Positions 11,043 through 45,171 of a stretch of DNA of 45,171 nucleotides are shown piece after piece. How positions within the stretch are numbered: the first letter of the stretch is position 1; each line of letters opens with the position of its first letter. The DNA is taken from contig JAZDJU010000106.1 in assembly GCA_043803685.1 (NCBI GenBank), positions 1 to 45,171 of the forward strand. Direction: 5' to 3'. The notes beneath the pieces were generated by a model, which was given only the letters and a program-made list of their open reading frames with translations, was not told the origin of the DNA and ran no database searches. Origin of the DNA: Candidatus Omnitrophota bacterium. GTDB lineage: Bacteria > Omnitrophota > Omnitrophia > Omnitrophales > Aquincolibacteriaceae. A program made the translations under genes and the position numbers.

Positions 11043-11071
11043 TTGACAAGGGGTATTTCCGAACGTACACT
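11043..11071 (+). promoter_or_regulatory. Sigma70-type promoter
   Basis: TTGACA (11043-11048), 17 bp, TACACT (11066-11071). Confidence 0.75.
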
Positions 11072-11658: not shown

Positions 11659-11690
11659 GAATGGCTTCCTGTCCCTCCGGACAGGGGCAT

Positions 11691-11820: not shown

Positions 11821-11839
11821 TTTTCATGGATAGCAAGAC

Positions 11840-11873
11840 GAAGGGCTGGCCTAAGGGCCAGCCCTTCCTGTTT
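11840..11873 (+). terminator. Terminator-like hairpin (riboswitch expression platform)
   Basis: GAAGGGCTGGCC-TAAG-GGCCAGCCCTTC, a perfect 12-bp stem followed by CTGTTT. Confidence 0.7.
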
Positions 11874-11957
11874 ACGAAAAGTCTCCCCAAAATCGTTCTT
11901 TTCTGATTTAATACCGTCCTCTTTCAACCCCACTCATGCGAAAAAGGGAACTCTCAT

Positions 11958-12887: not shown

Positions 12888-12922
12888 TTGGCTGAACCGA
12901 TCGAGGGAATTTTTTTGCGCAT

Positions 12923-12962
12923 AAAAAAACGCCCTGCCGCTAATAACGGCAGGGCGTTTTTT
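12923..12962. terminator. Bidirectional intrinsic terminator between terC and hppA
   Basis: AAAAAAACGCCCTGCCG-CTAATAA-CGGCAGGGCGTTTTTT. Confidence 0.9.
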
Positions 12963-12986
12963 ATTGACGTTTCTTTCCGATCAGGA

Positions 12987-15455: not shown

Positions 15456-15717
15456 ATGTCTCCGGTTAAACTAATAACTCAAGTCTCGTAGATCTTCGGG
15501 GGGATGACCAAGAAACGCAGGACCCAAGCTAATAATTGTTTGTTGTTGAGGTTCAATAACGTTCCAAAAGGATTTATACCTCGGATGGGTGCCTATGATA
15601 GCGTAACGCCAGAAAAAAACCATCCAATTTTTTAGATGGGACAAAAATGGGGGGGGTGGGAAAGAAACAGGTATCTATTGAATGTCTTTTTCCTTCTGCT
15701 ATTATTAAAAACCTTCT

Positions 15718-19792: not shown

Positions 19793-19832
19793 GCGAATTT
19801 CAAAAAGAATTCAGTTCCTCTTGGGATAAGAA

Positions 19833-25402: not shown

Positions 25403-26164
25403 ATGATCGACGTCCAGAATCTAACGATGAAGTACGGCAGTTTTGTGGCCTTGGATGGTATCTCCTTCCAGATGCAGGAGGGGGAGATCCTGGGTCTTCT
25501 GGGCCCCAATGGCGCAGGCAAGACTACCGCCATGCGGATCTTAACGACCTACCTTTGTCCTTCCTCCGGAACGGCCAAGATCAGTGGCCTGGATATTCTC
25601 GAAGATCCCATCGAAGTCCGCAAACAGATCGGCTATTTGCCCGAAACGGCGCCGCTCTATTCGGATATGCAAGTGGATGATTACATCGCTTTTGTCGGGA
25701 ACGCCCGGAAGCTCAAGGGCAAATTGCTTGAGGACCGCATCCATTGGGTTAAGGACGTTTGCGGCATTAAGGAGGTCTGGAAGCATACGATCTCGGAGCT
25801 TTCCAAAGGATACCGGCAGCGGGTCGGGTTGGCGCAGGCTCTTATTCATGATCCCAAGGTTCTGATCCTGGATGAGCCCACTTCGGGACTGGATCCGCTC
25901 CAGATCATGGATATTCGCGATCTGATCAAGGGGTTGGCCCGGAAAAAGACGATTATCTTTTCCACACATATCCTCCAGGAGGTCGAAGCCATGGCCGACC
26001 GGATCGTTATCATTAATGAAGGGAAGATCGTGGCTCAGGGGACCCAGGCAGAATTGACGGAACAGGTCCGTAAACGGGGAGAATCCAAATCAGCAGAGAC
26101 TTTGGAAGATGTTTTTATCGCTTTCCTGAGATCCAAAAAAGGAGCAAAAAAGCTGGCGCTATGA
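25403..26164 (+). CDS. ABC transporter ATPase, GldA-like
   Basis: GPNGAGKTT, LSKGYRQRVGLAQALIHDP, LILDEPTSGLDP. Confidence 0.92.
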   Translation: MIDVQNLTMKYGSFVALDGISFQMQEGEILGLLGPNGAGKTTAMRILTTYLCPSSGTAKISGLDILEDPIEVRKQIGYLPETAPLYSDMQVDDYIAFVGNARKLKGKLLEDRIHWVKDVCGIKEVWKHTISELSKGYRQRVGLAQALIHDPKVLILDEPTSGLDPLQIMDIRDLIKGLARKKTIIFSTHILQEVEAMADRIVIINEGKIVAQGTQAELTEQVRKRGESKSAETLEDVFIAFLRSKKGAKKLAL

Positions 26165-28656
26165 TCAACTTCGGGGATCTTTTCACGATCTTTAAGCGGG
26201 AGAACAAGGCCTACTTTAACTCTCCGATCGCGTATATCTTTATCATCGTTTTCGTTCTGCTCGCGAACGGCCTTTTCATGACGCAATTCTTCCTGATGGG
26301 ACGTGCGGACATGCGCCCATTCTTTGGGACCCTTCCCATGATCCTGGCGGTTTTTCTTCCCGCGGTCACCATGCGGCTTTGGGCTGAGGAAAAGAGGGGG
26401 AACACGCTGGAGCTTTTGCTGACGTTCCCCATGCGGACCCACGAATTGGTGCTCGGGAAATTTGTCGCAAGCCTGGTCTTCTATCTTGTGGCTTTGGCAT
26501 CGACGGTCATGATCCCGGTCATGTTGTTCTTCCTCGGGAAGCCGGACTTTGGGGCCATGGTGAGCGCTTACATGGGCGCGGTCCTTCTTGGCGCATTTTT
26601 TCTTTCGATCGGTATTTTTATTTCGGGGATCGTTAAGGACCAGATCGTTGCTTTCATTCTGGCCATGATGGTCTGCTTCTCTCTCTATATGGTCGGGACC
26701 GGATTTTTTGCCACCGCAGTGGATGGCTGGATTCCGGGGATGGGCTCCTTTCTCCGGAATTTCCTGGGAGTGACGCGTCACTTTGATTCTTTTGCTAAAG
26801 GGGTTGTCGACAACCGGGATGTTGTTTATTTCCTGCTCGGTTCGGGCATTTTTTTGACGCTGAACGGTTTCTGGCTGGAAGGGCGCATGCGTCCCAAGGC
26901 CAAGGCCATATTTTCTTCTGCGGCACTGGTGTGTGGCGGGATCTTTTTGATGGCGAATTGGCTACTCGCGGAGATCCCGTTGGGTCGCTTCGATATGACC
27001 CAGGGACAGATCTATACGATCTCGCCCTGGACGGGAAAACTTCTGCAAGGGTTGAAGGCCCCCGTGACTGTTAAACTCTACATCTCGCCTTCCGAAAAAA
27101 TGCCCACAGGCATGAAAGCTCTTGAGCAGGAGATCGTGGATAAGCTCGATGAGTTTCGCGTCGCCGGGGGCGGGAAGTTCCAGTATAAGATCTTTCACAT
27201 GGAAGCTGCGAACGTGACCGAGGCCGGCAAGCAGAAAGAGGACTCGCTAGAGCAGCAGCTTTCCGAGAAAGGGATCAAGCCCTTCCAGGTCCAGTCCATC
27301 CAGGCGGACGAGGTCGGGATGAATCTGGTCTATTCCGCGATCACAATGAGCTATAAGGAAAAACCCACGGAGATCATCGGGCGAGTCATTCCGGATAACA
27401 TTGCCGAACTCGAATATCTTCTGATCTCGAGGATCTACCGGATGATGCTTCCCGAGCCGCCCCAGGTGGCGCTCGTGGCTCCCTACAAAGAAAAAGAAGT
27501 GGAAGCCGAGCTCAAGCCGCTTTTGGCTCAATTGGGCGGGAAGACTCCTGAAGGATACAAAGAAGATAACTACGAATTGTTGCCGATGGCTCTCGGTTAT
27601 GCGGGATACAAAACTTCACGGATCAAGTTGACGGAAAAAGAACCGATCCCGGAGGGGACGAAGACTTTGATCGTGGTGGATCCCGAGCGTCTCGAGGACC
27701 GGCAGCGTTATGAGATCGACCGCTTTCTTGCGGGCGGTGGCTCTCTCTTTCTTGCCGTTCAGGACTACGAATACAACTATGCTTTATCAGGCAAAGAGTT
27801 ATCTGTTGGCGCGACGGAAAAAAAGCCACAGATCAATTCCTTGATCGCGGGTTGGGGATTCGAAGTGGACGACCAGATCCTGGTCGATGAGCAGAGCGAT
27901 GTGGTGAGCGTCAGCGGCGCGGCGCGCCTGGGGCCTTACGAACTTTCCGTGCCGGTCAAGATCCCGATCCAGATCTTGATCACCCAGGCGGGCATGAATC
28001 CCGACGTTTCGATCACCTCACGCCTTTCGCCGATCTTCTATTTGTGGGGGACGCGATTGAAATTGAACGAGGCGAAGATCAAATCTCAGGGGCTGAAGGT
28101 GGAAACGCTTCTAACATCCACCAAGGATTCCTGGACGGTGCCCTTTAAAGCCGAGAACCTGACTCCTCAAGATCTGAATCCTCTTGCGGACAGTCCGCAC
28201 GGTCCCTTCCCGTTGGCGGTCATGGCCCAAGGCCTTTTCCAGGACCTTTATGCCGGAAGACCGGCGCCAGCCTGGCCGAAGCCGGGAACTTCAGAGGCGG
28301 AGAACAAGGCTATTGAAGCACCGCAGCCCGCGCCTCTTGAAGTGAAGTCGGGGAAAATGATCCTGGTCGGAGCCTCTTCCTTCTTTCAGAAGCACTTACT
28401 CCGCAACAGCGGACATCTGACATTTTTTCTGAATTGCGTCGATGCCCTCACGCTTGGGGACGAACTTGTACGGATCCGGTCGAAACAACCCATTGAGCGC
28501 TCGCTCAGCCGGATGTCTTCGGGGTCCAAAGTTCTGTGGCGCTTTCTGGCGACCCTTCTGGTTCCGATCCTGATCGCGTTCATCGGTATTGTGAAAGGCG
28601 TGATCAAGAGACGTTCAAAGCAAGCATACCTGAAAATGCTGGCGCTCGTCGAATAG
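26161..28656 (+). CDS. Fused GldF-like ABC-2 permease plus GldG-like periplasmic domain
   Basis: YFNSPIAYIF...TMRLWAEEKRGNTLELLLT (GldF), then RFDMTQGQIYTIS...FFLNCVDAL (GldG) and a C-terminal TM. Confidence 0.85.
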   Translation: MINFGDLFTIFKRENKAYFNSPIAYIFIIVFVLLANGLFMTQFFLMGRADMRPFFGTLPMILAVFLPAVTMRLWAEEKRGNTLELLLTFPMRTHELVLGKFVASLVFYLVALASTVMIPVMLFFLGKPDFGAMVSAYMGAVLLGAFFLSIGIFISGIVKDQIVAFILAMMVCFSLYMVGTGFFATAVDGWIPGMGSFLRNFLGVTRHFDSFAKGVVDNRDVVYFLLGSGIFLTLNGFWLEGRMRPKAKAIFSSAALVCGGIFLMANWLLAEIPLGRFDMTQGQIYTISPWTGKLLQGLKAPVTVKLYISPSEKMPTGMKALEQEIVDKLDEFRVAGGGKFQYKIFHMEAANVTEAGKQKEDSLEQQLSEKGIKPFQVQSIQADEVGMNLVYSAITMSYKEKPTEIIGRVIPDNIAELEYLLISRIYRMMLPEPPQVALVAPYKEKEVEAELKPLLAQLGGKTPEGYKEDNYELLPMALGYAGYKTSRIKLTEKEPIPEGTKTLIVVDPERLEDRQRYEIDRFLAGGGSLFLAVQDYEYNYALSGKELSVGATEKKPQINSLIAGWGFEVDDQILVDEQSDVVSVSGAARLGPYELSVPVKIPIQILITQAGMNPDVSITSRLSPIFYLWGTRLKLNEAKIKSQGLKVETLLTSTKDSWTVPFKAENLTPQDLNPLADSPHGPFPLAVMAQGLFQDLYAGRPAPAWPKPGTSEAENKAIEAPQPAPLEVKSGKMILVGASSFFQKHLLRNSGHLTFFLNCVDALTLGDELVRIRSKQPIERSLSRMSSGSKVLWRFLATLLVPILIAFIGIVKGVIKRRSKQAYLKMLALVE

Positions 28657-28677
28657 AAAAAATAGGGAATCTATCAC

Positions 28678-30069
28678 GTGAAACTAAAACATCTCGCGGT
28701 CTTCGGGGTTCTTCTCATCGTTCTAGCGGCGGCCGTTTTTTTTAAGGCGCAACAGAAACCCGCCGAACTGGCTACAGAAGAATACGTTCCTCTGAATCTT
28801 GCTTTTGACAGCGCCAAGGTTTCGAAGATCGAGATCGGAAAAGCGAAAGACTCCAAGATCGTAGAGATCGTCAAAGATGCGACAGGCGCATGGGTTCTTC
28901 CCACTTTCTTCGGCGCGCGGGCGGACGAAAAAAAGATCCAGGAACTCTTCAAGACCTTTCCTCAGGCCAAAGGGGAGTTACGGGCCAAGGACAAGGCGCT
29001 CTTCCCAGATTTCGGACTTACAGAAGATAAAGCCTACCGGATCGCATTTCTCGATGCTGCAGGGAAGTCTATCTTCACATTACTTGTTGGGCCCAAGATC
29101 ACGCAGTCGGCTTCGGCATTTGTGAGGAAAGCAGATTCCGACCAGGTTTTTTACCTCGGGACGGATTTTTTTGGCAAGATCGGGGTCTATGAGGATCCCG
29201 AAAAAGTGGCGCCCACGAACGATTATTGGGCCAGCTTGATCATGGTAGCTCCGAAGGCAGATCTGATCGACGCGCTCGAGGTCGAACGAACGATTGGCGC
29301 AAAAAAACAGGCGGTCGCCCACGTGCGTCGTGAGACGGATCCGAATGATCTCTCAAAGAAATGGTGGAAATTCGTGAACGCGGGAGTGCCCTTTTCGCCG
29401 GACGCCACGAAGATCAAGCAGTTTTTCAAGATTTTCGAAACAAGCCCCGCATCCAGGGCTTTGGACCCCAAAGCCAAAGATTTCGGTTTCTCCACGCCCA
29501 AGTGGCAAATGAAGCTGCATCAGGACAACGGACAGGAGATCCTCATGACGGCGGGGGCCGAGGATCCCGCGACGCAGGGGATCTATCTACAGATCTCGGG
29601 AGAGCCCGTGGTGTTCCAACTGCCGAAATATTACTTCAACAATCTGGACGTCGATGACAGCAAATTTTTTGGCGACAATCCGTTGTCGGTCGATGCCGAG
29701 AAGATCGAAAAGATCTTTATTCACACACCGACCGGGGAAGTGGTCCTTTCTCCCAATACCGATAAACGGGATGGGGTGGCTCGCTTCATGAAGAGTCTCC
29801 AGGGCCTGAACGTTTCCAAACTTGTTTTTGATCCCAAAGCGAAGATCAATTCCAAATCCGGGCAGTTGAACTGGATCGAGATCAAGAAAATGGGAGTTCC
29901 GGAAACTTTCTTTCTGGACGTTGAAGGAATGCCATTCGAGGGAGGCAAGGAATACCTTGCAGGGAAACGGGACGGCACCCAGTTTTTTCTCATCTCGGAG
30001 AGTTCCTTTAAGAGTCTCTTTGGGGACTTGCAGTCTCTTAAGCCTGCCGCTGAGCCTGCTAAGAAATAG
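28678..30069 (+). CDS. DUF4340-like periplasmic protein
   Basis: N-terminal anchor, repeated W...AD..KI...DFGL/DFGF modules; usual position after gldA/F/G. Confidence 0.7.
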   Translation: MKLKHLAVFGVLLIVLAAAVFFKAQQKPAELATEEYVPLNLAFDSAKVSKIEIGKAKDSKIVEIVKDATGAWVLPTFFGARADEKKIQELFKTFPQAKGELRAKDKALFPDFGLTEDKAYRIAFLDAAGKSIFTLLVGPKITQSASAFVRKADSDQVFYLGTDFFGKIGVYEDPEKVAPTNDYWASLIMVAPKADLIDALEVERTIGAKKQAVAHVRRETDPNDLSKKWWKFVNAGVPFSPDATKIKQFFKIFETSPASRALDPKAKDFGFSTPKWQMKLHQDNGQEILMTAGAEDPATQGIYLQISGEPVVFQLPKYYFNNLDVDDSKFFGDNPLSVDAEKIEKIFIHTPTGEVVLSPNTDKRDGVARFMKSLQGLNVSKLVFDPKAKINSKSGQLNWIEIKKMGVPETFFLDVEGMPFEGGKEYLAGKRDGTQFFLISESSFKSLFGDLQSLKPAAEPAKK

Positions 30070-32098: not shown

Positions 32099-32114
32099 TC
32101 AATCTCCTGCTGAT

Positions 32115-34226
32115 TCAGGGGTTCTTTGGAGAAAGACGGCCCAGGGCATCTTGGGCTTCTGTGTTTTTGGGATCGAGTTTCAGGATCTCGCGGTATTGAG
32201 TCATCGCCTCATCGGGTTTTTCCCGTTTAAGAAGGAAAGACGCGTAATCGCTATGATAAAAGACGGACCCAGGCCCAAAGCGGATCGCGTCGCGGTAATG
32301 GAGGTCTGCTTGATCGAATTGCTTCTTTTCGGCCAGGAAATTGGCGAGGTTATTGTGAGCCACAGCGTGCGAGGGATCGATCTCGAGGGCATTCATGTAA
32401 AGCCCCATCGTTTCGTCGACACGCCCGAGAAGGGTCAAAGCGAAGCCCAGGTTGGCATAAGCGTCCGCAAGCTTACGGTCGAATGTGATGGATTTCCGGT
32501 AGCAACGGATCGCTTCCTCAATGTCACTCTTTTTTAAGTAAGCGGTTCCAAGATTGAGATAAGCTCCCGCGAAATCCGGCTTTAGCTCGATCGCTTTTTT
32601 ATGACGCGTGATCGCTTCGTCCGTTTCTCCCAGTTTGAAGAGAGCCGCCCCAAGATTATTTTGAAATTCCGCGGAATCCGGCTGCAGGCTGACAGCCTCG
32701 CGAAAGCTTTCGGCCGCACGGACGAGGTCCCCCTTTTGTGTCAGCAAAGCGCCAAGATTGTTGAGATTTCCCGGGTGGTTTGTTTTGGGACTGCTCTTGA
32801 TCAGGGCTTCGGCTTCCGGAAAGCGGGAGGTTTCGATCAGCAGCTTGACGAGATTATTGTAGGCAATGATATTCTGCGGCGCGAGACGGAGCGATTCGCG
32901 ATAATGAGCTTCGGCCCTTTCGCGCTGAAGGCGGAGCGATTCACGATAATGCGCATCGGCAGGCGCGATTTCCTTGGCCGCTTCGAGTTCTACGGCTAAA
33001 TTATTATGAGCCATCCAGGCGTTTGGATTTTTCGCGAGAGTGTCGCGCCAAAGGGTTTCACGGTCCATGTAGATCCCGCATTGTTTCCAGCTAAGGCCGC
33101 CCAGGAGGACGAGGACTGTGACTCCGAGAAGCAACCGGACCCTTCGTTGTTTAATGAGTAGGGTCATTCCGGATGTCACGAGGGCGAAAGGAGCAATGAC
33201 AGCCAGGTATTGGAAATGATCCGCTACAAAGGAGAATCTCATCGGGAAGAAACTCTTGAAGCCAAGGGCCGGGAGGAGCGTCACTGCGAAGATCGTAAAA
33301 ACCGTAAAGGGACCTTGGCCCCATCGTTTGCGGAAGATCCACAGGGTTGCCAGAAAGAGGAGAAACGCAGCAGGGAAATACCATTGCCAGGAAACAGCCG
33401 TCGAGATCGTCCACCGCGGATAGATAAAGATAATAGGCTGGGGCCAGGCAAGTTTCCCGAGATAGAACCAAAGAGCGCGTCCGGCAATCAGGCAGCGCTC
33501 TGCGAAGGAAAACGTCCACTCGTCGGTCGCGGTACCGATGATGTGTCCGCTCTCAAGTTTGAGAGTGATGGAACTCAAGACAGCAGCTGCAGCGAAGAAA
33601 GGGATCATCCGGAGGAGTTCCTTCCACGGGAATCGTCCTTCCTTCCACCAGAAGATCAGTATGATCGCCGCTGGCAAGGTTCCCGTGACAGTTTTTGAGA
33701 GGAGCGCGGCGATGAAGAAAAGAAGAGACGCAAGATACCAGGGCCAGGGACTGGACTCTTTTTCTTTAAAGCGGAAATAGGATAATAAGGCTGAGAGATA
33801 GAAGACCCCGGAGAGGACGTTTTTCCGCTCGGTGATCCAGGCCACCGACTCGACCATGACGGGATGAACCAGAAAAAGAAGCCCTGCGAACCATGCGCCC
33901 CGGACCTTGAGGCGTTCAAGGACCCGCCACACAAGGAGGCTGTTCAGAGCATGGAGAAGGACATTGGTCACATGGTAGCCCAAGGGGTGCAGCCCCCAGA
34001 GATGATATTCCGTCCAGAAGCTCGAGTAGGTGAGGGGATAATACTGGTCAAGTCTTCCGGGTTGGACCCAGATCTCCCACAGCCCCCGAAGGCTCCTCAG
34101 AGCCGTGTTCGCGGTCACATAGGCGTCATCGTCCCAGATGAAGCCTGCGCGTAAGGCGGGAAGATAGACCAGGAGCGCGAGCCCCATGAGCCATCCCAAA
34201 CGCCACCGCCACAATAACTGTTTCAT
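32115..34226 (-). CDS. TMTC-like GT-C glycosyltransferase with C-terminal TPRs (paralog 2)
   Basis: Same motifs (FIWDD, ESVAWITERK) and a longer TPR tail. ATG 34226 follows SD CAGGAGA and aligns with the paralog 1 start. Confidence 0.85.
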   Translation of the reverse strand: MKQLLWRWRLGWLMGLALLVYLPALRAGFIWDDDAYVTANTALRSLRGLWEIWVQPGRLDQYYPLTYSSFWTEYHLWGLHPLGYHVTNVLLHALNSLLVWRVLERLKVRGAWFAGLLFLVHPVMVESVAWITERKNVLSGVFYLSALLSYFRFKEKESSPWPWYLASLLFFIAALLSKTVTGTLPAAIILIFWWKEGRFPWKELLRMIPFFAAAAVLSSITLKLESGHIIGTATDEWTFSFAERCLIAGRALWFYLGKLAWPQPIIFIYPRWTISTAVSWQWYFPAAFLLFLATLWIFRKRWGQGPFTVFTIFAVTLLPALGFKSFFPMRFSFVADHFQYLAVIAPFALVTSGMTLLIKQRRVRLLLGVTVLVLLGGLSWKQCGIYMDRETLWRDTLAKNPNAWMAHNNLAVELEAAKEIAPADAHYRESLRLQRERAEAHYRESLRLAPQNIIAYNNLVKLLIETSRFPEAEALIKSSPKTNHPGNLNNLGALLTQKGDLVRAAESFREAVSLQPDSAEFQNNLGAALFKLGETDEAITRHKKAIELKPDFAGAYLNLGTAYLKKSDIEEAIRCYRKSITFDRKLADAYANLGFALTLLGRVDETMGLYMNALEIDPSHAVAHNNLANFLAEKKQFDQADLHYRDAIRFGPGSVFYHSDYASFLLKREKPDEAMTQYREILKLDPKNTEAQDALGRLSPKNP

Positions 34227-34329
34227 TCGTTCTCCTGTTGTACCGTCATGCATTATCGGCTCATTGCGACAAGGGCTAAATCGCTTTCACCGTTTTGACA
34301 CCTCTTATTCTGGTGTATAATCCCGTACG

Positions 34330-35043
34330 ATGAAATTATCTATTATCATTCCGATCTTCAATGAAGTGAATACCCTCGAGGAGATCGTCCGCCAAGTCCA
34401 GTCGGTCCAGTATCCTGTGGATCATGAGATCATTATTGTGGATGACGCTTCGGTCGACAAGACCTATCAAAAGGCCGCGGAGATCCGGACTGAAAATCTT
34501 CGCGAAGGGAAGGAAGTCCGGTTGCTCAAGAATGAAGTGAACCGCGGAAAATCATTTTCCATTCGAAAAGGGATCCAGTCTTCTCAAGGCGATCTCGTTC
34601 TGATTCAGGATGGGGATATGGAATATGATCCCCAGGATATCCCGGGATTATTGGAGCCGATCCTGAAAGGAGAGGCGGATGTCGTTTGTGGCAGCCGGTT
34701 TTTAAAAAAGGCACATCCCGAAGCCATGACCCTGCTGAGTTGGATCGCTAATAAAACGCTTACGTGTCTCACCAATCTTTTGTATGGACTGCGCCTCACG
34801 GACATGGAAAGTGGTTACAAGATCTTTAAAACGAACGATCTGAAAGCTTTGAAATTGCGATCCGAGAGGTTCGAGTTCGATCCCGAAGCCATCGCTCTTC
34901 TCGCACGGAAAGGAGCGCGCATCGTGGAGTTGCCGATCCACTATCATGGACGGACGGTTCGTGAGGGGAAGAAGATCAACGGCATGGATTTTATAGAAGC
35001 CGCCTGGACACTGATCAAATACCGGCTCAAGCCGACGAAGTAG
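34330..35043 (+). CDS. GT2 polyprenol-phosphate glycosyltransferase (DPM1-like)
   Basis: KLSIIIPIFNE, IIVDDAS, NRGK, IQDGDMEYDP, GSRF, LTDMESGYK, FEFDPE. Confidence 0.88.
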   Translation: MKLSIIIPIFNEVNTLEEIVRQVQSVQYPVDHEIIIVDDASVDKTYQKAAEIRTENLREGKEVRLLKNEVNRGKSFSIRKGIQSSQGDLVLIQDGDMEYDPQDIPGLLEPILKGEADVVCGSRFLKKAHPEAMTLLSWIANKTLTCLTNLLYGLRLTDMESGYKIFKTNDLKALKLRSERFEFDPEAIALLARKGARIVELPIHYHGRTVREGKKINGMDFIEAAWTLIKYRLKPTK

Positions 35044-35440: not shown

Positions 35441-35529
35441 CGCCCAAACTACCATGTTGGAAATGAAATGGAAAGTTTGGGTGGGCCATTTTGAACCGGT
35501 GGCCGTGAAAGTCGGAAGGGGTGGGCGCC

Positions 35530-36186
35530 ATGCCTAGATTTCCGAGGATCCATTTAGAGGACGCCATTTATTCCATTCAGATGGAAGGTCCTTCCGGCGA
35601 GCCTATTTATAAAGATGCCGAGGATTACGGAAAATATCTAAGCATTCTTTCCCAGGCCAAGCAGGAATTCGGCTTCAAACTTTTCTCTTACGCGATCATG
35701 CCCGATCGCATTCATCTTTTGATCGAGCCGCAGGAAGATCATCCGGTCTCCCAGATCATGCAGAAGATCACGCCGAACTACACCAAGTACTATAATAGTA
35801 AATACGGCCGTAAAGGACATCTCTTTCCCAAACGCTTCCGTTCGGTCTATGTCGAGCGTAACGCCTATCTTCCCAAACTTACCCGTTTCATCCATCTTCT
35901 TCCGGAGAGGAGCGGCGTCGCCTCATGTTTCCGTGAATATCCTTATTCGAGTTACGCGGCTTATGCGTCGAACGCGAAGGGCCCCATCTTAGTCGAAGTG
36001 ACTGAGGTGATCCGATCGCTGGGCGTTGCTGTTTCCGAAGATCCCTACGAACGTTACATGCTTTCTGCGGACGACCGGGAGTTGGAATACCTCGAGAAGA
36101 AATTGTCCCGCGGTTCTTTCCTGGGTTCCGATGAGTTCGTTTCAAAGGTCCGCCAGGAGATCGCTCTTCACGCCGCAAAAAAATAA
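35530..36186 (+). CDS. RAYT/IS200-like Y1 transposase-fold protein with degenerate active site
   Basis: MPRFPRI...FKLFSYAIMPDRIHLLI...YTKYYNSKYGRKGHLF..RFRS...TRFIHLLPERSG...YPYSSY. HUH first His is Arg (35707) and the catalytic Tyr is Phe (35887). Confidence 0.85.
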   Translation: MPRFPRIHLEDAIYSIQMEGPSGEPIYKDAEDYGKYLSILSQAKQEFGFKLFSYAIMPDRIHLLIEPQEDHPVSQIMQKITPNYTKYYNSKYGRKGHLFPKRFRSVYVERNAYLPKLTRFIHLLPERSGVASCFREYPYSSYAAYASNAKGPILVEVTEVIRSLGVAVSEDPYERYMLSADDRELEYLEKKLSRGSFLGSDEFVSKVRQEIALHAAKK

Positions 36187-36792
36187 CAAGAAGCGCCCGT
36201 GGAAGAAGTCCTCGCGGAAGCGCCGGCATTTTCGGCTCCCGTTCCGGCGGAGCCTGTTCTCGCCGGAGGCTGGAAGATGCGTCCTATTATTCTTTCCGGA
36301 GCTTTGTTCGCGACGATCGCGCTCAGTTTCATCTCAACAACCTTTGATCGTCCGGTCAAACCGGTCGCGACTTCTGCGGTGTCCGCGGTTGGGACGAAGG
36401 CCCTCGAGAGCAAGATGGTCGCGCGCGCTACGCCTCGTACCTTTAAAGAGCCGATCGAAGGCATGATCTGGGAAGTGGAGATCTACACGATCACAAAGGA
36501 CGGCGCCACTCATCCCATCAAGGACAAGATCCGTTTCAACGGGAAGTCCTTCGAGTCCTATTACTTTTCAAGTCAGGGTTTTTCTCCTTCCAATTACACG
36601 GTGAAGGTCCGTGAGAATGGGGCCATTACCTGGGAAACGATGCAACGGAATCCCAAGGGAGAGCTCATCAGCTGGCGCGGCGACCTGGAAGGTGGCAGGA
36701 TGGAAGGCGTGATGAATTATCAAACCTCGGAGAAAAATATCCAGAATTTTTCTTTTTTAAGTAATGATATCGTGAGGCTGAAAAATGGATAA
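36187..36792 (+). CDS. In-frame continuation of the RAYT-fold gene: Pro/Ala/Glu linker, TM helix, beta-rich extracytoplasmic domain
   Basis: Same frame directly after TAA 36184-36186; no clear SD before GTG 36199; TM PIILSGALFATIALSFISTTF. Confidence 0.7.
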   Translation, partial: QEAPVEEVLAEAPAFSAPVPAEPVLAGGWKMRPIILSGALFATIALSFISTTFDRPVKPVATSAVSAVGTKALESKMVARATPRTFKEPIEGMIWEVEIYTITKDGATHPIKDKIRFNGKSFESYYFSSQGFSPSNYTVKVRENGAITWETMQRNPKGELISWRGDLEGGRMEGVMNYQTSEKNIQNFSFLSNDIVRLKNG

Positions 36793-37561
36793 AACCATAG
36801 CTTCTAGACTAAAGACTATAGACCCTAGCCTAGAAACAGAAAAACAAAAGGCTATAAGCTACGGGCTATATGCTATAGGCCTCATTTTCGCGATGGTTCT
36901 TTTCCCGCTCGTGGGATATGCCGCGACACAAACCTCGGATCATGCCGGCGACGCCTCAAGCGAACTTTCGGTCACGCTCAGTAAATCGATCGAGGCCGGT
37001 AAAGCGGTGGCGGGTCGTGCGCTTTCCAGCAAGGCAAAAGCGGCGAGCGCAGCAGCCGCTCCGTCAGCGGACATAACCCCGGAGATCATCGGTAGCACTC
37101 CTGAGAAAACAGCAGGCATTACAGGCAAGGCCACAGCCACTCAAGGAGCGAAGGTTTTGCCGGTCGCATCTCCCAAAAAGTATGTCTTTAAATATCCCGA
37201 CCTGCCGGTCCTCAGTGAAGATATGCAACCCGTGAAAAAAACGCTCACCGGCGAGGTGGGGGTTGTGATTAAGACGGGCATGAATGTCGAATTTGACCGT
37301 AAGGCGTCCTCTTCGACCGATCTCTGGGTCGAATTTACCCAGGGGACTCAAGTCGAGGGTGTGAAGGCTTTTAGTGAATTTCTTCCGGGCGATAAGGTGC
37401 AGATCACGTACGCGGAAGCCAAAGATCAATCGAAGCGCGCGGTGCGGTCGATCAAACTCTTGAAGAGAAAGACCGAGGAAGAGAAAAAGCGTGAAGCTGC
37501 GGCAGAAGCGCGCGCCGAAGCCGCAGCGGCTCAAAAATCAACCCGGGCGGAGGAGTCATGA
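36785..37561 (+). CDS. Exported protein with Ala/Ser/Thr-rich linker and C-terminal OB-fold-like domain
   Basis: Hydrophobic segment YGLYAIGLIFAMVLFPLVGYA; TLTGEVGVV...FSEFLPGDKVQITY; overlaps both neighbours. Confidence 0.7.
   Translation: MDKTIASRLKTIDPSLETEKQKAISYGLYAIGLIFAMVLFPLVGYAATQTSDHAGDASSELSVTLSKSIEAGKAVAGRALSSKAKAASAAAAPSADITPEIIGSTPEKTAGITGKATATQGAKVLPVASPKKYVFKYPDLPVLSEDMQPVKKTLTGEVGVVIKTGMNVEFDRKASSSTDLWVEFTQGTQVEGVKAFSEFLPGDKVQITYAEAKDQSKRAVRSIKLLKRKTEEEKKREAAAEARAEAAAAQKSTRAEES
36795..36878. repeat. Inverted heptamer arrays (CTATAGC-type x5, GCTATAG-type x4) inside the 5' end of a CDS
   Basis: CCATAGC TTCTAGA CTAAAGA CTATAGA CCCTAGC (36795-36829); GCTATAA GCTACGG GCTATAT GCTATAG (36851-36878). 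Confidence 0.7.
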
Positions 37562-40500
37562 ACTTAAGACCCTGCGTTAAAAAGGAGAGTGTTTTTTCCT
37601 CCCGCAGGGTGCGTCTGGCGGCGTTGGGTCTGGGCATCGTTCTGGCGTTCCTGGCCGCGATCCCGGACGCCGAAGCCGTCCAGATCAAGCGCGTTATTCA
37701 GGGTTCGGAAGCCTTTCTCGCGGACGACGTCTCGAACAGCGTTACGCTGGGTCTCGGCGTCGGTGATTATGTGGATACCAGCAAGGCCTTTATCTACATC
37801 ACCAGTTCGGTCGCGGGAACCACCGCCGACCAGAACATGTTCTTTTACGCCTACTTTGAAGACGGCCAGAATATCAATATCACGCGCGCCACCGGAACCG
37901 TTGTGGCGACTGTTACCTGGTATGTCGTGGAGTTCGTCGACGGCGTTTCCGTCCAGCGCGGCTTGACCAGTCTTGCCAAGGGCGATTTGACGAAAGATTG
38001 TATTTTGACGGCCGTGGACCAGACGAAATCGTTCCCCATTATCGGGGACGGCGGTTTGATCACCACCACGACGGACACGGAGGTTTTGACCGTCATGCCG
38101 TATTTTACAAGCGATACCGTGCTCCGCCTTCAGCGTATAAGAACCGCGACTAACGCCGGTATCGCAAAAACAGTGATCATCGCCTGGCAGGTCGTGCAAT
38201 TCGAGACCGACGCTTCGGTCGCGACGGGGAGCGGAACCATCGCAGCGGCCGCCACATCCGCCACAGCGACGATCAGTCCCGCTCTTAGCGCTTCCTACGC
38301 GACGCAGGCCTTTCCGCTCATTTATTATTCGGGGAATCTGGGTATTAACGGGATCGACTCCATGATCATGGTTCGCGGCAGGCTCACCGCGACGAACCAG
38401 ATCACGGTGAATCGTCGCATTGGAGGTTTGACCAACGACGACGTGTATTATCGAGTCTATGGCGTTGAATTGACGGATGGCGCGAGTACGGTGCAGAACA
38501 GCACCAAACAGCTCACGGCGGGTACGCTTACGAGTACCTCCACAATCACTTCGGTGGATTATGCCAACCGCGTTGTGCCGTTCATCAGTATGAGCGGAGG
38601 TAACGGGTCGAGCAATAACAGGATGGCGGACGATATCTTCACCCGTGTGGAGCTGACGAATGCCACGACCTTGACCTTTGCGCGTCAGGCGGCCAACAAC
38701 AGCATTGTGGTCGATCTTGATTTTAGCGCCGTGGAGTTTTGTCCGGTGACGATCAAGACGCCGAATGGCGGCGCGACGCAGCAGGGAGCAAACGCCTGGG
38801 TCGTGGGAACTAGCTACCAACTTCTCTGGAAACACGCGGACAGCGTGGCCGCCCATAATTGGAAACTTCAGTATTCGCTGAACTCGGGAGGCGCCTATTC
38901 GGATATGGGGAGTTGGTGCGGCGCGGCGGGGACGGCGGCGTGCTCGGGCACGGGAAATCTTTCGGCGGACTCGGGGTCGGCTGTCGCGAACGAAGGAAGC
39001 ATTCTCTGGACGATCCCTTCAAGCACCAATTTCATCGGAACTCTTGTGAGGCTCCGGCTGATTGATACGACGTTAACGGGTTCAGGTTATTCCGAGGCGA
39101 GAAGCCGTGACAGTTCCAATGCCGATTTTACGGTTCGCGGATCCGTGTCGGCCGTCGCTTTGGCGGATACGGATGGGGCCCTTAGCGCGGACAATCCGCT
39201 CGGCGTCGGGAATGCCGATCTCGGTGTGACCTGGTCTCACACGGGAGCGATCGGGAACGTGATTATCGAACTCGATCCTAACGGGGACGGGAATTACGCG
39301 GACGTCGTTACGATCAAAGCCAGCACGTCGGGTACTTCCGATGCCTGTAACGCCGCATGTACTGCCTGGACGGTTCCCGACAGCGTTTCCACGAACGCCA
39401 AGATCCGCGTTCGGGAATTAGCGCCGCCTTCGGGGACCACGGTGGAAGCGGTGAGCTCCGCGTTCGAGATCCGGCCGTTCCTTGCTTTTTTTAGACCGAT
39501 CGCGGGGGACACTTGGGTTCGAGGCCAGGCCCAGACGCCTACGGCCACGAACGGTGTGGTTCGCTGGTGTCAAAAGGGGACGGTTTCTCCCGGGGTGGAT
39601 ATTCGATATTCCGCGAACGCCGGCAACGCTTATTCAGGGGAAGCCAACAAAGTTGCTACGGGGCTTACTTCAAGCGGCACTTGCGACGCTTCGCATTTTT
39701 GCGCGGATTCCGGACAAACCGGTTGCACCGGGGGCACTCAATATAAGTATAACTGGACGCTTCCGGGGGATCTTACTTTGAGCGAAGGTAATGCAATGCT
39801 CAAGATCGTCAAGACGGGGGACCTTGCAGAGCTAGTCTCACATACTACCGGTCTTTTTACGACCAAGGCCTCGGTTCAGCTTGACGCGCCGATCGTCGAT
39901 TCCTCGGCTCCGCTGCGTTATCAGACAGGAGCCGAGCTCACCACTGTCAGCTGGACCAGTCCCGGCGGTGGACAGGGGGTTGTCCAACTCAGGTATTGCA
40001 ATGGTTATGTGGCCAACGGCTGTCAAGGCAATCCGGGCGATTCGGACTGGACTTTGATGACCGATCCTTCGACTGCCACGAATTTAACGACTCCGGGGTC
40101 GTACAACTGGAAAGTCCAGGCAGCGATCGGGACGGATGTCGGGATCATGGTTGCGGATATGACAAGCCCCACGCTGATCTATGCCATGAACGGGCCTTAT
40201 ACGGTCAAGGCCAGTATCACGGTGAACGAACCCGGAGGCGCTCAAACGATGCTGCAGGTCGGAGAGTCCCGGACGATCACATGGACCCCTTCCGGCACGA
40301 TCGGGACGGTTTACATCTGTCTCGATAAGACCGATAACGGGACCTGCGATTATGAAATCGCCGGCGCGGTCGAAAACGTACAGGCCACTGCGGGGCTCTG
40401 GAGTGATTGGCAGCCGCCGGCGGGCGGAGCCACGGAAGTTCCTAATGAGCAATGCACGAACTGCCGCATCCGTGTTTACAAGCCGGGCGATGGCGCGGAC

Positions 40501-43500
40501 CCGGCGGGAACGGTCGGAAAGTCCGGTCTTTTTTCCCTCGGTCGTGCGCTTAACACGGTCGCCGTCAGTGGAACGCCTCCCCGGAAGATCGGAGATGTCG
40601 TGGATGTCACCTGGACCGCTTTTCCGGACGATGCGACATGGACCGTGACGCCGAAATGGTCGACCGATGGTACAAGTTGGAATAATTTGTACAGTGGTCC
40701 TTCGACGCGGGCCGCCGATGGAAGCCCCAGCAGTTGGACGATCCCTGATGTGACGACGATCGTTTCTTCCTCCGTGCGCGTTCGCATTGAAGACGCCGCC
40801 AATAGCAGTCTTTACAGTGATTCGGCTCTGTTTCAGGTCAAAGGAAAGCTCATCCTTACGCAACCTGTGGGCTCTCCCTGGAAGATCGGTACGCCTCATG
40901 ATATCGTTTGGTCCCGGACCGGCGGTACCGCGATCGCGAATGTGAACATTAAATATTCGCTGGACGGTGGAATTAGCTATCCTTCTCAATATACGATCAA
41001 GAGTCTCAGTGGCGGCGGTAGTCCCTTTAGTTGGTGTGTCGGGAAAAATGATGGTTGCAGCGGGACGACCCCAGGTCAGCCTGCGAATGATCCTCTCCTG
41101 GTGATCGGGGCCAATGACAAGAATACGATCGTCAAGATCATGGTTGAAGATGCGGACGATACCAAGGGCAGTGTTGGGGGAGGGACCTACAGCGAGGCGA
41201 CCGCGGACATTACCATTCAAAAAGATTATGCGTCGGTTTTGATCGGAAACCTCGCGGCCGGCGCGGTTCTGTATGTCGGGGATACCAACGGGACGGACCG
41301 CATTAAATGGACGACGGTTGGGGATTCGACGAGCAATGTGTTTCTGGCGTATCAGACTAGCGGCTATACGTTCCCGACCAATAATATCAAGGACGTTCCG
41401 GGCGCAAGTGACGTCAACGCTTACCATTTGTGGACCGTTCCCGACGCTATTGGGGCCGCAGTCAAGGTCAGGGTCAAGAACGCGAATTTCCCCGATGATA
41501 TCTATGCGGATTCCGGTGCCTTCGTGATCAAGGGGAAGATCACGACCGCGTTCCCGACGACCGGTTCCGTGTTGGTGGTGGGACAGGACGTGCCAGGTGG
41601 TATTCAATACGCAAAATTCGGGGATATCGGGAATCTCGAGATCATTTACAGACACGGCACCTATGATACTGTGATCACGCCTCCAGCGAGTCCGGGTCCG
41701 GAAGGCACAAGTGAAGGGACCACTTTCTCGTGGAACGTGGTTTCGACGGATTCGAATAGTGACAGTGTGATCCACGTGGGGCTTGGCCAACCGACTAGCA
41801 AGTTCATACTGACCGGGTTGACGCAAAAAGGGGATCCCGCGTTGGAGGCGACCATCGAAACGCCGCTCTTCAAGATCCGCGGTGATCTTTATAACGGTGC
41901 GGCTTCCCAGCTTCTTTCGGAGCCGGGAGGCGGGGAAGTTTACGCGATCGGTGGGGTGACGCAACGCTATGTCCGTTGGCGAGCTCGCGGCATTATCGGG
42001 AACGTCCGGGTGCGTTTGGACTTGAACGACGGCAAGGGCGATGACGATACGGCCAACACCTCAGACGATTATGCCATCCAGGTCCAAAGGCCAAATGCGG
42101 CATGCGGGACGCCCCCCTGCTACGCGGAATCCGTCGCTTATAATCTCGAGGAAGATACCTCGGATACGGATAATTACAGCATGGAATGGCTCATCCCCGA
42201 TCTGTCGACGTATCAAGCCCGTATCCGGGTGGAGAGCCTGGACAATCCTTATGACTACAATGATCCCAGTAATGCCATGGCGACTTACGCCATCACCGGA
42301 AGGTACGACAACCAAAAGTTCTGGATCCGGCCCAGTGTGGCTGTGGTCTCTCCGAACGGCGCACAAAATCCCCAGTGGAAAACCGGCGAAACTGGAAAAT
42401 CGATCATCGTCAGTTCCAGTGGCGCCGCGAAGCTTGATGTCTGGCTTTGCTATAACAACGCCACGAGCGATTGGCCCGATTGCTCGACCAAATACGTGAT
42501 CACGTCAAACTTTCAGGTGAGTGCCGGCAATAGAGAATTTTCTTGGAATGTCCCCAATGATTTTAGTACCGAAAATGCCATCATCCATGTGCAGTGGTCG
42601 GACCAGACTTCGATCAGCGGTGAATCGGCCGCCATTTTCAAGATCAAATCGGCGCTAGGTGTCACCTACCCGAACCAGTTCAGCGATGAGATCGTCGTGG
42701 GCAGCAGCGACGGGTCCAATGACATCACCTGGACCGCGATCGGCGTCGGGCCTTCGGATACGGTGAAGATCAACGTCTCGACGGACGGGACGACCTGGAA
42801 TGACGGGACGCCGACCTACGCGAATCTGGGAGGATTGATCGTGGGTTCGGCCTCGGCGACGAGTGGTGTTTACACCTCCTGGACGGTCCAGGACATCATG
42901 TCGGATGCCGCAAAGATCCGAGTTTGTAAGAACGAAGGCGCTGCGACGGGCGAAGCGTGCGCGATCTCAAATGTTTTCAATATCACAGGTTCTATTTCTT
43001 CCGTTTATGTCAAAAATGCCGTGAACGATCCTGAGCCGCCAACGCCAGTGGTCGATCTTTCCATTCAGGACAAGACCAAGGTCATTACCTGGAAATACAC
43101 GGGGAGTCTGGGTACGGTCAATATTGACTACACCATTAACGCAAGTAATCTAACGCCTACCTGGTTTCCGGTGATCGGGTGCCAGGATGTTTCCGTGGGA
43201 GCCGGCGGAAGCGGTTCTTGCGTATGGGATCCAGTCACGGGTATTCCCGGGCCGCCTTCCGCGGACGTCAAGGTCCGTGTTTCCAACAAACAGCACCATA
43301 ATCCCACTCCCGATAGCTGGAAAGATCTGACGACGGTTGGAACGCAGACTCACAGTATTATTGGAAGTATCACGGAAGTCGGGGTCGTGCCGGATGCTGA
43401 CGGATCTGTTCTGAGAGTGGCCGGAAGCAAATCAATCCGCTGGAAGCAGAACGGGGGTATTACAAGTTTCGATATCAAATACAGGGTCGATGGTGGAAGC

Positions 43501-45171
43501 TGGCTTGGGACGGGCCTTACCGGTGTCGCAGGCGCGGAGAATGGCGGTTACCTGACCCAGGAATGGGCCGGGATCCCGGACGACATTTCCAACGATGTTG
43601 ATTTTCTCGTCGCGGACCACAATAACGCGGCCAAGGTTTTGTGTGCCAGTGACGACAACGCCACAGGGAAGTGTTCTGAGGGAAGTCCGAACGGTTTTAT
43701 TCTGAAAGGTCAATTGAGCATTGGGTCCCCGGTGGTGACGGATAACTGGACCATCGGAGCTACGCCGAGTCCCTCCATCCGTTGGACTAAGTACGGAAGT
43801 ATCGGGGATCTCAAGAGTGAATACTCAACGACCGGGACCTTCGCGGCCGGGGATTATTCGGGCGGGAATGTATACACGATCGAGAGCGCTTATCCTGCCG
43901 GTAGCGATGGAGTCAATAATTACGCGTGGCAGGTCGGTATCATCGGCGCGAACCGAAAACTTTCGGATACGGGCAAGATCCGCCTGACGACCGTGAGCCA
44001 GCCTGTCGGCGCGGAGCTGGATATTTCAAGCGATGCCTTCAAGATCCGTCCTTCCATTGATTCGATCGATAAACCGGTGGTCGGAGGGACCCCCACCGTG
44101 TGGTACGCGACGGATACAGATGCCGGGCAAACGATCGAGTGGGTCTCCAAGAGCGGCACCAAAACGAATGAGGTCGTTCCAACCTGTATTGTGGAATATT
44201 CGACGAACGGAACGGATTACACGACGGTCCCCGGTGGCGCCAGCGTTGATTGCAGTCAGGGCGGGCACAGTCTTGCATGGACTCCCATGGCCGATCTTCG
44301 AAGCACCACGGTTCGTGTCAGGATCTCCTACAATGATTACACATCCGTGAATCTCGATACCGGATCGGGAGGCCAATTTTTCACAGTTCGTCCAAAGATC
44401 GTGGTGACGCCGACACCGGATGCCACCACGAAGCTTGTTGTGGGGACGACTTATAACAATTTGATCAAGTGGACCTATTCGGGGACGACCACGAACCGGA
44501 AAGTGGAGATCCGCTATGACAAGAACAATGAGAACACTTTCCCCGCAAACCAGACGATCGCCACCGATATCGACGCGGGTACGGGAGCGACCGGAGTCAC
44601 CTGGACCAATGTTCCGAATATCATCGGGGCGGACGTGAAGGTTCGTGTGTTCGATTTGGATTTTACGGCGTCTCAGGATGATTCGCCCCCGTTCAAGATC
44701 GTGGGAGGCATTTATTTCGCGACGCCTCAAAGCGGGGTGAACCGTACGGCGGACACCACGATGAACATCACCTGGACCTACACGGGGACGATCGCGAATT
44801 TTGACATCTATTACAGTGCCAATAGCGGCGGTGACTGGACTGTGGATCCGATCGGGAGCGCGACCGACGTGGGGAATTGCGCGGCCGGGAGCTGCAGTTT
44901 TTCATGGCTTGACACCCAAGCCGACAACATCGACGCCGTATTGAACACGGCTCGCTTCAAGATCACGAACGCCCTTGCCTCCAGCGCGCCACTTTATGCT
45001 GAAAGTGTCGCCGCATCCGATTTCAAGCGCGGCGCGTCTGTTTCGAATTTGCTTCCCGCGAACGGTCAGGTGATCTCGGCGGGATCGACGGATACGGACA
45101 TTACCTGGAACAAGCTGAAGGGTTTGTCGGCGGATACGAAGCTGAAGATCGAGTACACGAAGAACGCTTCT
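37558..45171 (+). CDS. Giant secreted surface protein with tandem Ig-like repeats, >2538 aa, 3' truncated (absent from ORF track)
   Basis: ATG 37558 after GGAGGAG overlaps the upstream TGA. Signal peptide RRVRLAALGLGIVLAFLAAIPDAEA-V. I saw no stop in this frame up to ...KIEYTKNAS. Repeats of P.GG..W.VG...I.W...G....V.I.YS.DG...W. Confidence 0.93.
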   Translation, partial: MNLRPCVKKESVFSSRRVRLAALGLGIVLAFLAAIPDAEAVQIKRVIQGSEAFLADDVSNSVTLGLGVGDYVDTSKAFIYITSSVAGTTADQNMFFYAYFEDGQNINITRATGTVVATVTWYVVEFVDGVSVQRGLTSLAKGDLTKDCILTAVDQTKSFPIIGDGGLITTTTDTEVLTVMPYFTSDTVLRLQRIRTATNAGIAKTVIIAWQVVQFETDASVATGSGTIAAAATSATATISPALSASYATQAFPLIYYSGNLGINGIDSMIMVRGRLTATNQITVNRRIGGLTNDDVYYRVYGVELTDGASTVQNSTKQLTAGTLTSTSTITSVDYANRVVPFISMSGGNGSSNNRMADDIFTRVELTNATTLTFARQAANNSIVVDLDFSAVEFCPVTIKTPNGGATQQGANAWVVGTSYQLLWKHADSVAAHNWKLQYSLNSGGAYSDMGSWCGAAGTAACSGTGNLSADSGSAVANEGSILWTIPSSTNFIGTLVRLRLIDTTLTGSGYSEARSRDSSNADFTVRGSVSAVALADTDGALSADNPLGVGNADLGVTWSHTGAIGNVIIELDPNGDGNYADVVTIKASTSGTSDACNAACTAWTVPDSVSTNAKIRVRELAPPSGTTVEAVSSAFEIRPFLAFFRPIAGDTWVRGQAQTPTATNGVVRWCQKGTVSPGVDIRYSANAGNAYSGEANKVATGLTSSGTCDASHFCADSGQTGCTGGTQYKYNWTLPGDLTLSEGNAMLKIVKTGDLAELVSHTTGLFTTKASVQLDAPIVDSSAPLRYQTGAELTTVSWTSPGGGQGVVQLRYCNGYVANGCQGNPGDSDWTLMTDPSTATNLTTPGSYNWKVQAAIGTDVGIMVADMTSPTLIYAMNGPYTVKASITVNEPGGAQTMLQVGESRTITWTPSGTIGTVYICLDKTDNGTCDYEIAGAVENVQATAGLWSDWQPPAGGATEVPNEQCTNCRIRVYKPGDGADPAGTVGKSGLFSLGRALNTVAVSGTPPRKIGDVVDVTWTAFPDDATWTVTPKWSTDGTSWNNLYSGPSTRAADGSPSSWTIPDVTTIVSSSVRVRIEDAANSSLYSDSALFQVKGKLILTQPVGSPWKIGTPHDIVWSRTGGTAIANVNIKYSLDGGISYPSQYTIKSLSGGGSPFSWCVGKNDGCSGTTPGQPANDPLLVIGANDKNTIVKIMVEDADDTKGSVGGGTYSEATADITIQKDYASVLIGNLAAGAVLYVGDTNGTDRIKWTTVGDSTSNVFLAYQTSGYTFPTNNIKDVPGASDVNAYHLWTVPDAIGAAVKVRVKNANFPDDIYADSGAFVIKGKITTAFPTTGSVLVVGQDVPGGIQYAKFGDIGNLEIIYRHGTYDTVITPPASPGPEGTSEGTTFSWNVVSTDSNSDSVIHVGLGQPTSKFILTGLTQKGDPALEATIETPLFKIRGDLYNGAASQLLSEPGGGEVYAIGGVTQRYVRWRARGIIGNVRVRLDLNDGKGDDDTANTSDDYAIQVQRPNAACGTPPCYAESVAYNLEEDTSDTDNYSMEWLIPDLSTYQARIRVESLDNPYDYNDPSNAMATYAITGRYDNQKFWIRPSVAVVSPNGAQNPQWKTGETGKSIIVSSSGAAKLDVWLCYNNATSDWPDCSTKYVITSNFQVSAGNREFSWNVPNDFSTENAIIHVQWSDQTSISGESAAIFKIKSALGVTYPNQFSDEIVVGSSDGSNDITWTAIGVGPSDTVKINVSTDGTTWNDGTPTYANLGGLIVGSASATSGVYTSWTVQDIMSDAAKIRVCKNEGAATGEACAISNVFNITGSISSVYVKNAVNDPEPPTPVVDLSIQDKTKVITWKYTGSLGTVNIDYTINASNLTPTWFPVIGCQDVSVGAGGSGSCVWDPVTGIPGPPSADVKVRVSNKQHHNPTPDSWKDLTTVGTQTHSIIGSITEVGVVPDADGSVLRVAGSKSIRWKQNGGITSFDIKYRVDGGSWLGTGLTGVAGAENGGYLTQEWAGIPDDISNDVDFLVADHNNAAKVLCASDDNATGKCSEGSPNGFILKGQLSIGSPVVTDNWTIGATPSPSIRWTKYGSIGDLKSEYSTTGTFAAGDYSGGNVYTIESAYPAGSDGVNNYAWQVGIIGANRKLSDTGKIRLTTVSQPVGAELDISSDAFKIRPSIDSIDKPVVGGTPTVWYATDTDAGQTIEWVSKSGTKTNEVVPTCIVEYSTNGTDYTTVPGGASVDCSQGGHSLAWTPMADLRSTTVRVRISYNDYTSVNLDTGSGGQFFTVRPKIVVTPTPDATTKLVVGTTYNNLIKWTYSGTTTNRKVEIRYDKNNENTFPANQTIATDIDAGTGATGVTWTNVPNIIGADVKVRVFDLDFTASQDDSPPFKIVGGIYFATPQSGVNRTADTTMNITWTYTGTIANFDIYYSANSGGDWTVDPIGSATDVGNCAAGSCSFSWLDTQADNIDAVLNTARFKITNALASSAPLYAESVAASDFKRGASVSNLLPANGQVISAGSTDTDITWNKLKGLSADTKLKIEYTKNAS

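Follow-up and report, generated by a model that had tools for sequence, protein, structure and literature searches.

We have identified, at the end of a contig from a Candidatus Omnitrophota bacterium, the 5' part of a gene for a giant surface protein with a predicted lectin-like head. The window analyzed here is the entire 45,171-base contig JAZDJU010000106.1 (C106) of assembly GCA_043803685.1 (genome G000; 2.89 Mb in 133 contigs). The protein starts with a putative signal peptide and a tip of four repeats, continues as a stalk of immunoglobulin (Ig)-like domains and very probably ends, on a second contig (C75), in an anchor domain encoded ahead of F-type ATPase genes. We favor, with moderate confidence, the view that the window encodes the outer end of a membrane-anchored filament whose tip binds sugars of a host or prey and whose base likely works with an F-type motor devoid of an ion channel.

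The open reading frame (ORF) from 37558 to 45171 (+) holds 2,538 codons and no internal stop, and its 3' end is open, which is likely why it was missing from the ORF track. Its product is rich in Thr (11.2%), Gly (10.2%), Ser (9.3%), Ala (9.2%) and Val (8.6%). Codon comparison with the orthologue of the same genus (G004) gave ratios of nonsynonymous to synonymous substitution rates (dN/dS) of 0.10 for the stalk (residues 399-2538) and 0.18 for the tip (residues 41-398), and the ORF is therefore taken as a real gene. An earlier interpretation made from the DNA letters (the sequence-only reading) had proposed a giant Thr/Ser/Gly/Val-rich ORF of at least 2538 codons, which the stop-free frame, the composition and the low dN/dS bear out. 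It had named a characterized enzyme or S-layer family as the other explanation of the repeats. Pfam and NCBIfam searches of the window protein returned zero matches, so that S-layer families (including SLH) and enzyme families went unmatched, and PHROG (searched with the tip) and PDB sequences likewise yielded no such family. The ATG is overlapped by the stop of the preceding gene, and for many homologues the match to the window protein starts 24-48 residues in. The genome holds 16 ORFs of at least 3,000 amino acids (aa), several of them open at contig ends.

The tip (residues 41-396) consists of four ~90-aa units. The sequence-only reading had described repeated W.VVEF.DG.SVQ.G-type units in this region; the repeats stood, but the exact WYVVEFVDGVSVQRG occurs at the first junction only, with variants at the others. 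The usable AlphaFold model of the tip rests on an 80-row alignment (the single-sequence prediction had a predicted local distance difference test score, pLDDT, of 32); with a predicted template modeling score (pTM) of 0.93, it packs the four repeats within a single chain. Structural matches of this predicted model include pyocin, phi297, AP22 gp53, discoidin, agglutinin and SLL-2, all among the structures grouped as one lectin fold in passages of Salazar et al. 2019 (PMC6363177). A Foldseek search of the model against PDB and viral models gave matches with low template modeling scores only. At the sequence level, PF09458 (H-type lectin) matched neither the window protein nor any tip of the 58 tip-bearing genomes, a tip-repeat profile found nothing among PDB sequences at E<=10, and profile searches with the tip, a single repeat, the stalk and the anchor found nothing significant there. 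The tip was unmatched in PHROGs and in an annotated phage collection, and all matches in the ESM Atlas were to unnamed clusters (for the tip mainly viral ones) that scored low in recognition.

The predicted fold resembles that of H-type lectins and the discoidin C-terminal domain as presented in those passages (PMC6363177), although the window tip has no detected sequence similarity to the family. Whereas an H-type lectin is a homotrimer with sugar sites between subunits, the window tip is modeled as four copies in one chain. It differs from the R-pyocin foot and phage tailspike tips of the same passages (PMC6363177) in being N-terminal on a bacterial filament, with sugar binding predicted. 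Judged by this fold, the tip would on balance be expected to bind glycans. It is also the most divergent part of the protein in three of four orthologues (identity 71% in G004, 36% in G005, 32% in G007 and 34% in G025), it takes insertions, and in other lineages it is replaced by other binding-type domains: further giants in the same operon slot start with LamG, FG-GAP, kelch or LVIVD. Protein P0002 carries a tip 54% identical on a stalk 24% identical, a contrast that suggests exchange of parts. Tips are present in 58 of 401 genomes of the phylum, and G000 has only one.

From residue 397 on, a profile of 146 repeat units (five relatives, one iteration) detects 18 complete repeats and the start of a 19th, spaced about 103-149 aa, in agreement with the many divergent ~110-140-aa Ig-type repeats that had been proposed; complete family members have 52-80. 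The repeats resemble the Kre9/KNH-like Ig-like domain (PF10342, cut-off 24.6 bits), which matches the C75 part (35 bits), G109 (92 bits) and, among 42 tip-bearing relatives, the stalk repeats of 7, in 6 of them above the cut-off. The window's own repeats, by contrast, are too divergent and carry Cys-loop insertions: only 1 of the 11 scanned was matched, weakly and below the cut-off (18.4 bits, E 0.0037). Calcium-binding loops were considered as well. The quoted loops DPNGDGNY and DLNDGKGDDD are both present, but they sit at the family's conserved YSx(D/N)GG turn, a pattern matched by nine repeats, and the strict Dx[DN]xDG motif occurs once in the window and nowhere in the C75 part, leaving calcium binding unsupported.

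C75 is the only other contig of G000 with these repeats. It starts mid-gene and encodes 47 further repeats as well as a coiled coil, an anchor domain of ~240 aa and a single transmembrane helix, which supports the earlier picture of a secreted giant surface protein that is built of Ig repeats, probably acts as an adhesin and has its C-terminal anchor past the contig end. Across 41 coiled-coil sequences, hydrophobic residues recur with a period of 3.66, as in a hendecad pattern, which suggests a bundle of several chains. An R-S/A-E-x-R linker was found in neither the C106 half nor the C75 half. The anchor is followed by genes for epsilon, c, b-delta, alpha, gamma, beta, GspE, GspF, pseudopilins, GspK, a PilM-like protein, GspM, an ExeA-like protein and a secretin. 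This order recurs: the anchor domain (including a tandem paralogue) is found in 84 of 151 phylum genomes. Of 50 anchor loci from a species collection, 21 have the anchor as part of a long ORF and 24 as a separate ORF behind a repeat or coiled-coil ORF; downstream come epsilon in 45 loci, b in 43, c and alpha in 42 each and GspE in 34, many of the misses being contig ends. Three further records (L165, L161 and L168; two labeled Binatia and one Rokubacteriota, as deposited) have the same anchor-epsilon-c-b-alpha order, and the upstream giant of L165 is of a different kind, without Ig repeats.

Subunit a was found downstream of the anchor at 0 of the 50 loci (one query sequence). PF00119 occurs once each in 109 of the 151 genomes and, among the matches listed, at least 88 kb from any anchor; several cluster-bearing genomes, e.g. 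G093, G058 and G090, have no subunit a that could be found anywhere. The ion-binding Glu of the c subunit is kept in 48 of 69 distinct sequences and replaced in 21, including that of C75; every one of the 69 retains the R-N-P loop. The C75 beta subunit retains the P-loop, GER.RE (catalytic Glu) and Walker B motifs, and the S(V)SR arginine-finger motif is present in each of 66 alpha subunits. Profile scores of the C75 alpha favor the ordinary atpA model. Two more ATPase loci occur in G000. C37 carries a complete housekeeping F1Fo ATPase including subunit a. The other locus, on C130 (about 9800-17000), is again a-less and keeps the c-subunit Glu; at its head is a 652-aa ORF with a tandem pair of anchor domains and a C-terminal part that is GGDEF-like by eye, and the anchor there comes without a giant.

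We propose that the chain would be exported by Sec and held by its C-terminal helix, that the coiled coil would bundle several filament chains, and that the co-encoded secretin/pseudopilus system would carry the filament across the outer membrane, where the tip would bind glycans on host or prey. An Ig-like domain is 4 nm long, and about 70 of them would thus give a stalk of ~0.3 micrometre, reaching beyond the ~0.2-micrometre cell. The latter size is that reported for Omnitrophota in passages of Seymour et al. 2023 (PMC10066038). Because subunit a is missing and the c ring lacks its Glu while the catalytic sites are intact, the ATPase should be unable to couple to ions as usual and hence likely does mechanical work; because it is fixed behind the anchor, the filament would be its load. 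Export by the secretin route, together with work of the a-less ATPase on the filament through the anchor (export or retraction), is put forward tentatively from gene content, at somewhat less than even likelihood. A bolder version is doubtful as a whole: a prey-capture machine in which the anchor occupies the a-subunit slot of an F1-c-ring motor, the filament is paid out, reeled or spun via the type II secretion system (T2SS)-type secretin, and the exchangeable receptor-binding head, here a four-fold form of the phage-fibre/H-type lectin fold within a single chain, sets the prey range of an ultra-small predator.

The best-surviving alternative, which we regard as unlikely but by no means negligible, is a static adhesin, exported by the T2SS as a passive tether, with an ATPase that is merely co-expressed and serves the pilus or secretion, or pumps ions with a borrowed or unrecognized subunit a. 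GspE follows the ATPase genes as regularly as the anchor precedes them, the 48 c subunits that retain their Glu would fit ion pumping, C37 could lend its subunit a, and some anchor loci have no ATPase nearby. What tells against the passive tether is that the anchor heads both a-less clusters of G000, on C130 without any giant, and so looks like part of the ATPase unit; moreover, the c-ring Glu is lost in the window's own lineage, and the genomes named above offer no subunit a to borrow. Less probable still is a coat or canopy in which bundled stalks form a protective layer or phage decoy rather than a prey tether. Tetrabrachion, an archaeal protein on a coiled-coil stalk, is the model for such a coat, and the hendecad coiled coil beside a single C-terminal transmembrane helix would suit it, as would the failure to find an enzyme domain in the protein parts scanned. 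A coat was also proposed for a giant protein of V. archaeovorus in passages of Seymour et al. 2023 (PMC10066038). A distal fold predicted to be of receptor-binding type and swapped for other binding-type domains is hard to reconcile with a coat, and SLH and S-layer families were not matched.

Some observations weigh against the reading that we favor, a membrane-anchored filament with a sugar-binding tip and a motor at its base. Tip dS is raised along with divergence (1.27 versus 0.63 in the stalk; 1.18 in the neighboring ABC gene) and tip dN/dS is far below 1, a caution on how much the divergence of the tip can show; some anchors have no ATPase in the flanking DNA examined; C106 and C75 share no direct sequence overlap; and anchorless tip-plus-Ig ORFs exist (G024, L135). 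The last two, together with a genome contamination of 6.6%, would favor a window ORF that is a separate, shorter, anchorless protein, with C75 holding another gene whose start was not assembled. We consider this very unlikely, given that G000 has only one tip and one open-ended anchored stalk, that the window has, upstream, the same genes as are found ahead of the main giant at complete loci, and that the two halves of G004 overlap within a super-repeat.

The tip contig of G004 contains two copies of a 2,292-base unit (88% identical in DNA) and its end is 95% identical to the start of the G004 anchor contig; the window ends about 160 bases into a super-repeat unit of this type, and tip and anchor are likewise split across contigs in G005 and G025. 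From repeat offsets, the gap between C106 and C75 is at least ~510 aa and the total at least ~8,900 aa (about 70 repeats), compared with at least ~10,500 aa in G004. The full protein likely has ~9,000-11,000 residues. An anchor match exists in 47 of the other 57 genomes with a tip (in one case to the tandem paralogue alone), and in 11, of which 8 were read, a single contig carries both tip and anchor, arranged as expected. Both lie in a single unbroken frame in G235 (7,617 aa) and G376 (7,231 aa); the anchor is the next gene after the giant in G109, G066, G209, G360 and G312, five split genomes for which the tip position was taken from separate tip searches, and it lies across an N gap in G138. 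Complete relatives measure 6,875-11,907 aa and have at most one strong transmembrane segment besides the signal peptide. The closest relatives of the C75 anchor are records titled Candidatus Omnitrophota. Near the C75 contig end (L029, about 19800-19935) a run of G contains a frameshift, which probably stems from misassembly of a collapsed repeat. Second tip-plus-Ig ORFs occur in the same kind of locus at L028:9366-12773 (complete, anchorless) and L135:7509-14729 (running off the contig), possibly as accessory or alternative tips.

The sequence-only reading had suggested that recognition lies in Cys loops that vary while their scaffold stays constant. Every Cys motif it quoted is present. Beyond residue 398 there are 30 Cys, 27 of which lie no more than 20 residues from another one, compared with 12.6 +/- 3.3 under random placement; none of 10,000 shuffles reached 27. 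Given this pairing and export of the protein, disulfide formation in the stalk is expected. Identity of Cys loops versus scaffold was 92 vs 89% in G004, 57 vs 56% in G005, 47 vs 47% in G007 and 32 vs 39% in G025; the loops are therefore not hypervariable, showing no excess divergence in three orthologues and a slight one in G025, whereas the tip diverges most in three of the four. G004 retains 30 of 30 Cys of the window stalk. Loops are mostly absent from two more distant proteins (P0002 and P0042), many complete family members have few Cys pairs, and G360 lacks any close pair. Cys counts in 13 long ORFs of relatives range from 7 in 7,546 aa (G109) to 176 in 11,907 aa (G098). The latter, a complete member at G098:C27:1158-36878 (L061-L063), has N-terminal LamG domains and 170 of its Cys closely paired. 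We infer that the pairs would form small stabilizing disulfide loops rather than a binding site; pairing far beyond chance and the gain and loss of loops between lineages notwithstanding, loops that are about as conserved as their scaffold and nearly missing from many members make stalk disulfide loops scarcely credible as recognition elements.

Passages of Seymour et al. 2023 (PMC10066038) describe a second, non-respiratory F-type ATPase beside pilus/T2SS genes, proposed for attachment to and movement on hosts, and treat giant ORFs separately from these loci. The C75 locus is of this F-type ATPase/type-4a pilus kind (PMC10066038): its extra F-type ATPase genes lie within 10 kb of pilus/T2SS genes, which defines a symbiotic F-ATPase/type-4a pilus locus, and the window is included only if C106 joins C75. 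A giant ORF at the locus, the missing subunit a, the loss of the c-ring Glu and the anchor and tip domains are undescribed in those passages (PMC10066038). Passages of West-Roberts et al. 2023 (10.1101/2023.11.21.568195) and of Nielsen and Lui 2026 (10.64898/2026.06.07.730766) report Omnitrophota giants beside T2SS genes, which share with the window family great length, membrane anchoring, proximity to T2SS/pilus genes and a proposed role in prey adhesion. The family comes closest to the 'tandem-repeat scaffold' class with signal peptide and transmembrane helix, or to the Pfam-dark group, among the giants described there. Giants of the West-Roberts type (Archaeovorin or dockerin type) exceed 30,000 aa and have many transmembrane helices and SecA-DEAD/dockerin domains, whereas the window family is shorter, with one transmembrane helix and none of these domains in the scanned parts. 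Kre9 and Ig-like are absent from the main texts of both papers, as is PF10342 from the 2026 text. Passages on Mycoplasma describe F1-like ATPases of type 2 (a gliding motor; PMC11864180) and type 3 (F1-like X0 with MIB-MIP; PMC12994834), alike in that an F-type ATPase paralogue serves a surface machine instead of ATP synthesis. In contrast to these, the Omnitrophota unit has recognizable c, b-delta and epsilon, a being the one subunit missing, and in its diderm cell it is linked with a T2SS and an Ig filament (compare PMC11864180, PMC12994834). The C75 alpha and beta subunits scored below the cut-offs of the MMOB and MSC (Mycoplasma-type) models. In the literature examined, bioRxiv supplements aside, the tip, the anchor and the missing subunit a are undescribed, although the 916-protein catalogue may hold members; literature searches on the tip fold or on a connection between adhesin and ATPase (bioRxiv supplements and subscription papers aside) yielded only the papers cited here. 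New here are the lectin-like tip with its four repeats and the indications that it is exchangeable, the linking of the two contigs over the break in the assembly, and the negative outcome of the Cys-loop test.

Features of the window are collected in the table. The 258-aa upstream protein is present in G004, G005, G007, G025, G066, G109, G209 and G312 and had no family match in Pfam/NCBIfam-type scans. The RAYT-like gene is one ~400-450-aa ORF in relatives and lies upstream of the giant in several families. In the window's genus its first HUH His, as we assign that position, reads Arg, and the position we take to be the catalytic Tyr reads Phe; the gene therefore looks domesticated. Just upstream (30314-35043) are two paralogous TMTC-like membrane proteins with tetratricopeptide repeat (TPR) tails and a GT2 gene; the TMTC-like name was given by eye, database matches to these proteins being to TPR only. 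Their products could glycosylate the Ser/Thr-rich filament. The GldA/GldF-G-like and DUF4340 genes also precede the locus in at least five other genomes (G004, G005, G007, G209 and G312).

Table. Positions of the giant gene, its parts and its upstream neighbors in the window.
Feature	Position	Strand	Basis or remark
GldA/GldF-G-like ABC transporter and DUF4340 gene	25403..30069	+	recurring upstream neighbor, looser link
RAYT/Y1-transposase-like domain, hydrophobic segment and small C-terminal domain	35521..36792	+	split by in-frame stop 36184-36186
258-aa protein with N-terminal hydrophobic segment	36785..37561	+	stop overlaps the giant's ATG; conserved immediately upstream of the giant
Giant surface-protein gene, 5' part (2,538 aa), cut at contig end	37558..45171	+	ORF reading; dN/dS vs G004
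Putative Sec signal peptide, residues 1-40	37558..37677	+	sole hydrophobic segment of the ORF; Ala-Glu-Ala cleavage judged by eye
Tip: four ~90-aa all-beta repeats	37678-37941, 37942-38205, 38206-38478, 38479-38745	+	predicted H-type-lectin/pyocin-fibre-foot-like fold each, packed in one chain
Stalk: 18 complete Kre9/KNH-type Ig-like repeats plus an incomplete one; 30 Cys, taken as 15 pairs (first 38917-38943)	38746..45171	+	repeat profile; PF10342
Start of ~764-aa (about seven-domain) super-repeat; near-identical copies break the assembly	45015..45171	+	start approximate; G004 internal copies

These results bear on how Omnitrophota cells of 0.2 micrometre find and hold a host. Most of their giant proteins lack annotation, and with the architecture defined here, including a tip of 40 kDa that can be expressed by itself, host specificity becomes testable without culture. 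If the a-less ATPase does drive the filament, the F-type rotary motor would have a novel use; if it does not, the protein would be an ordinary-looking giant adhesin with an uncatalogued lectin-like head.

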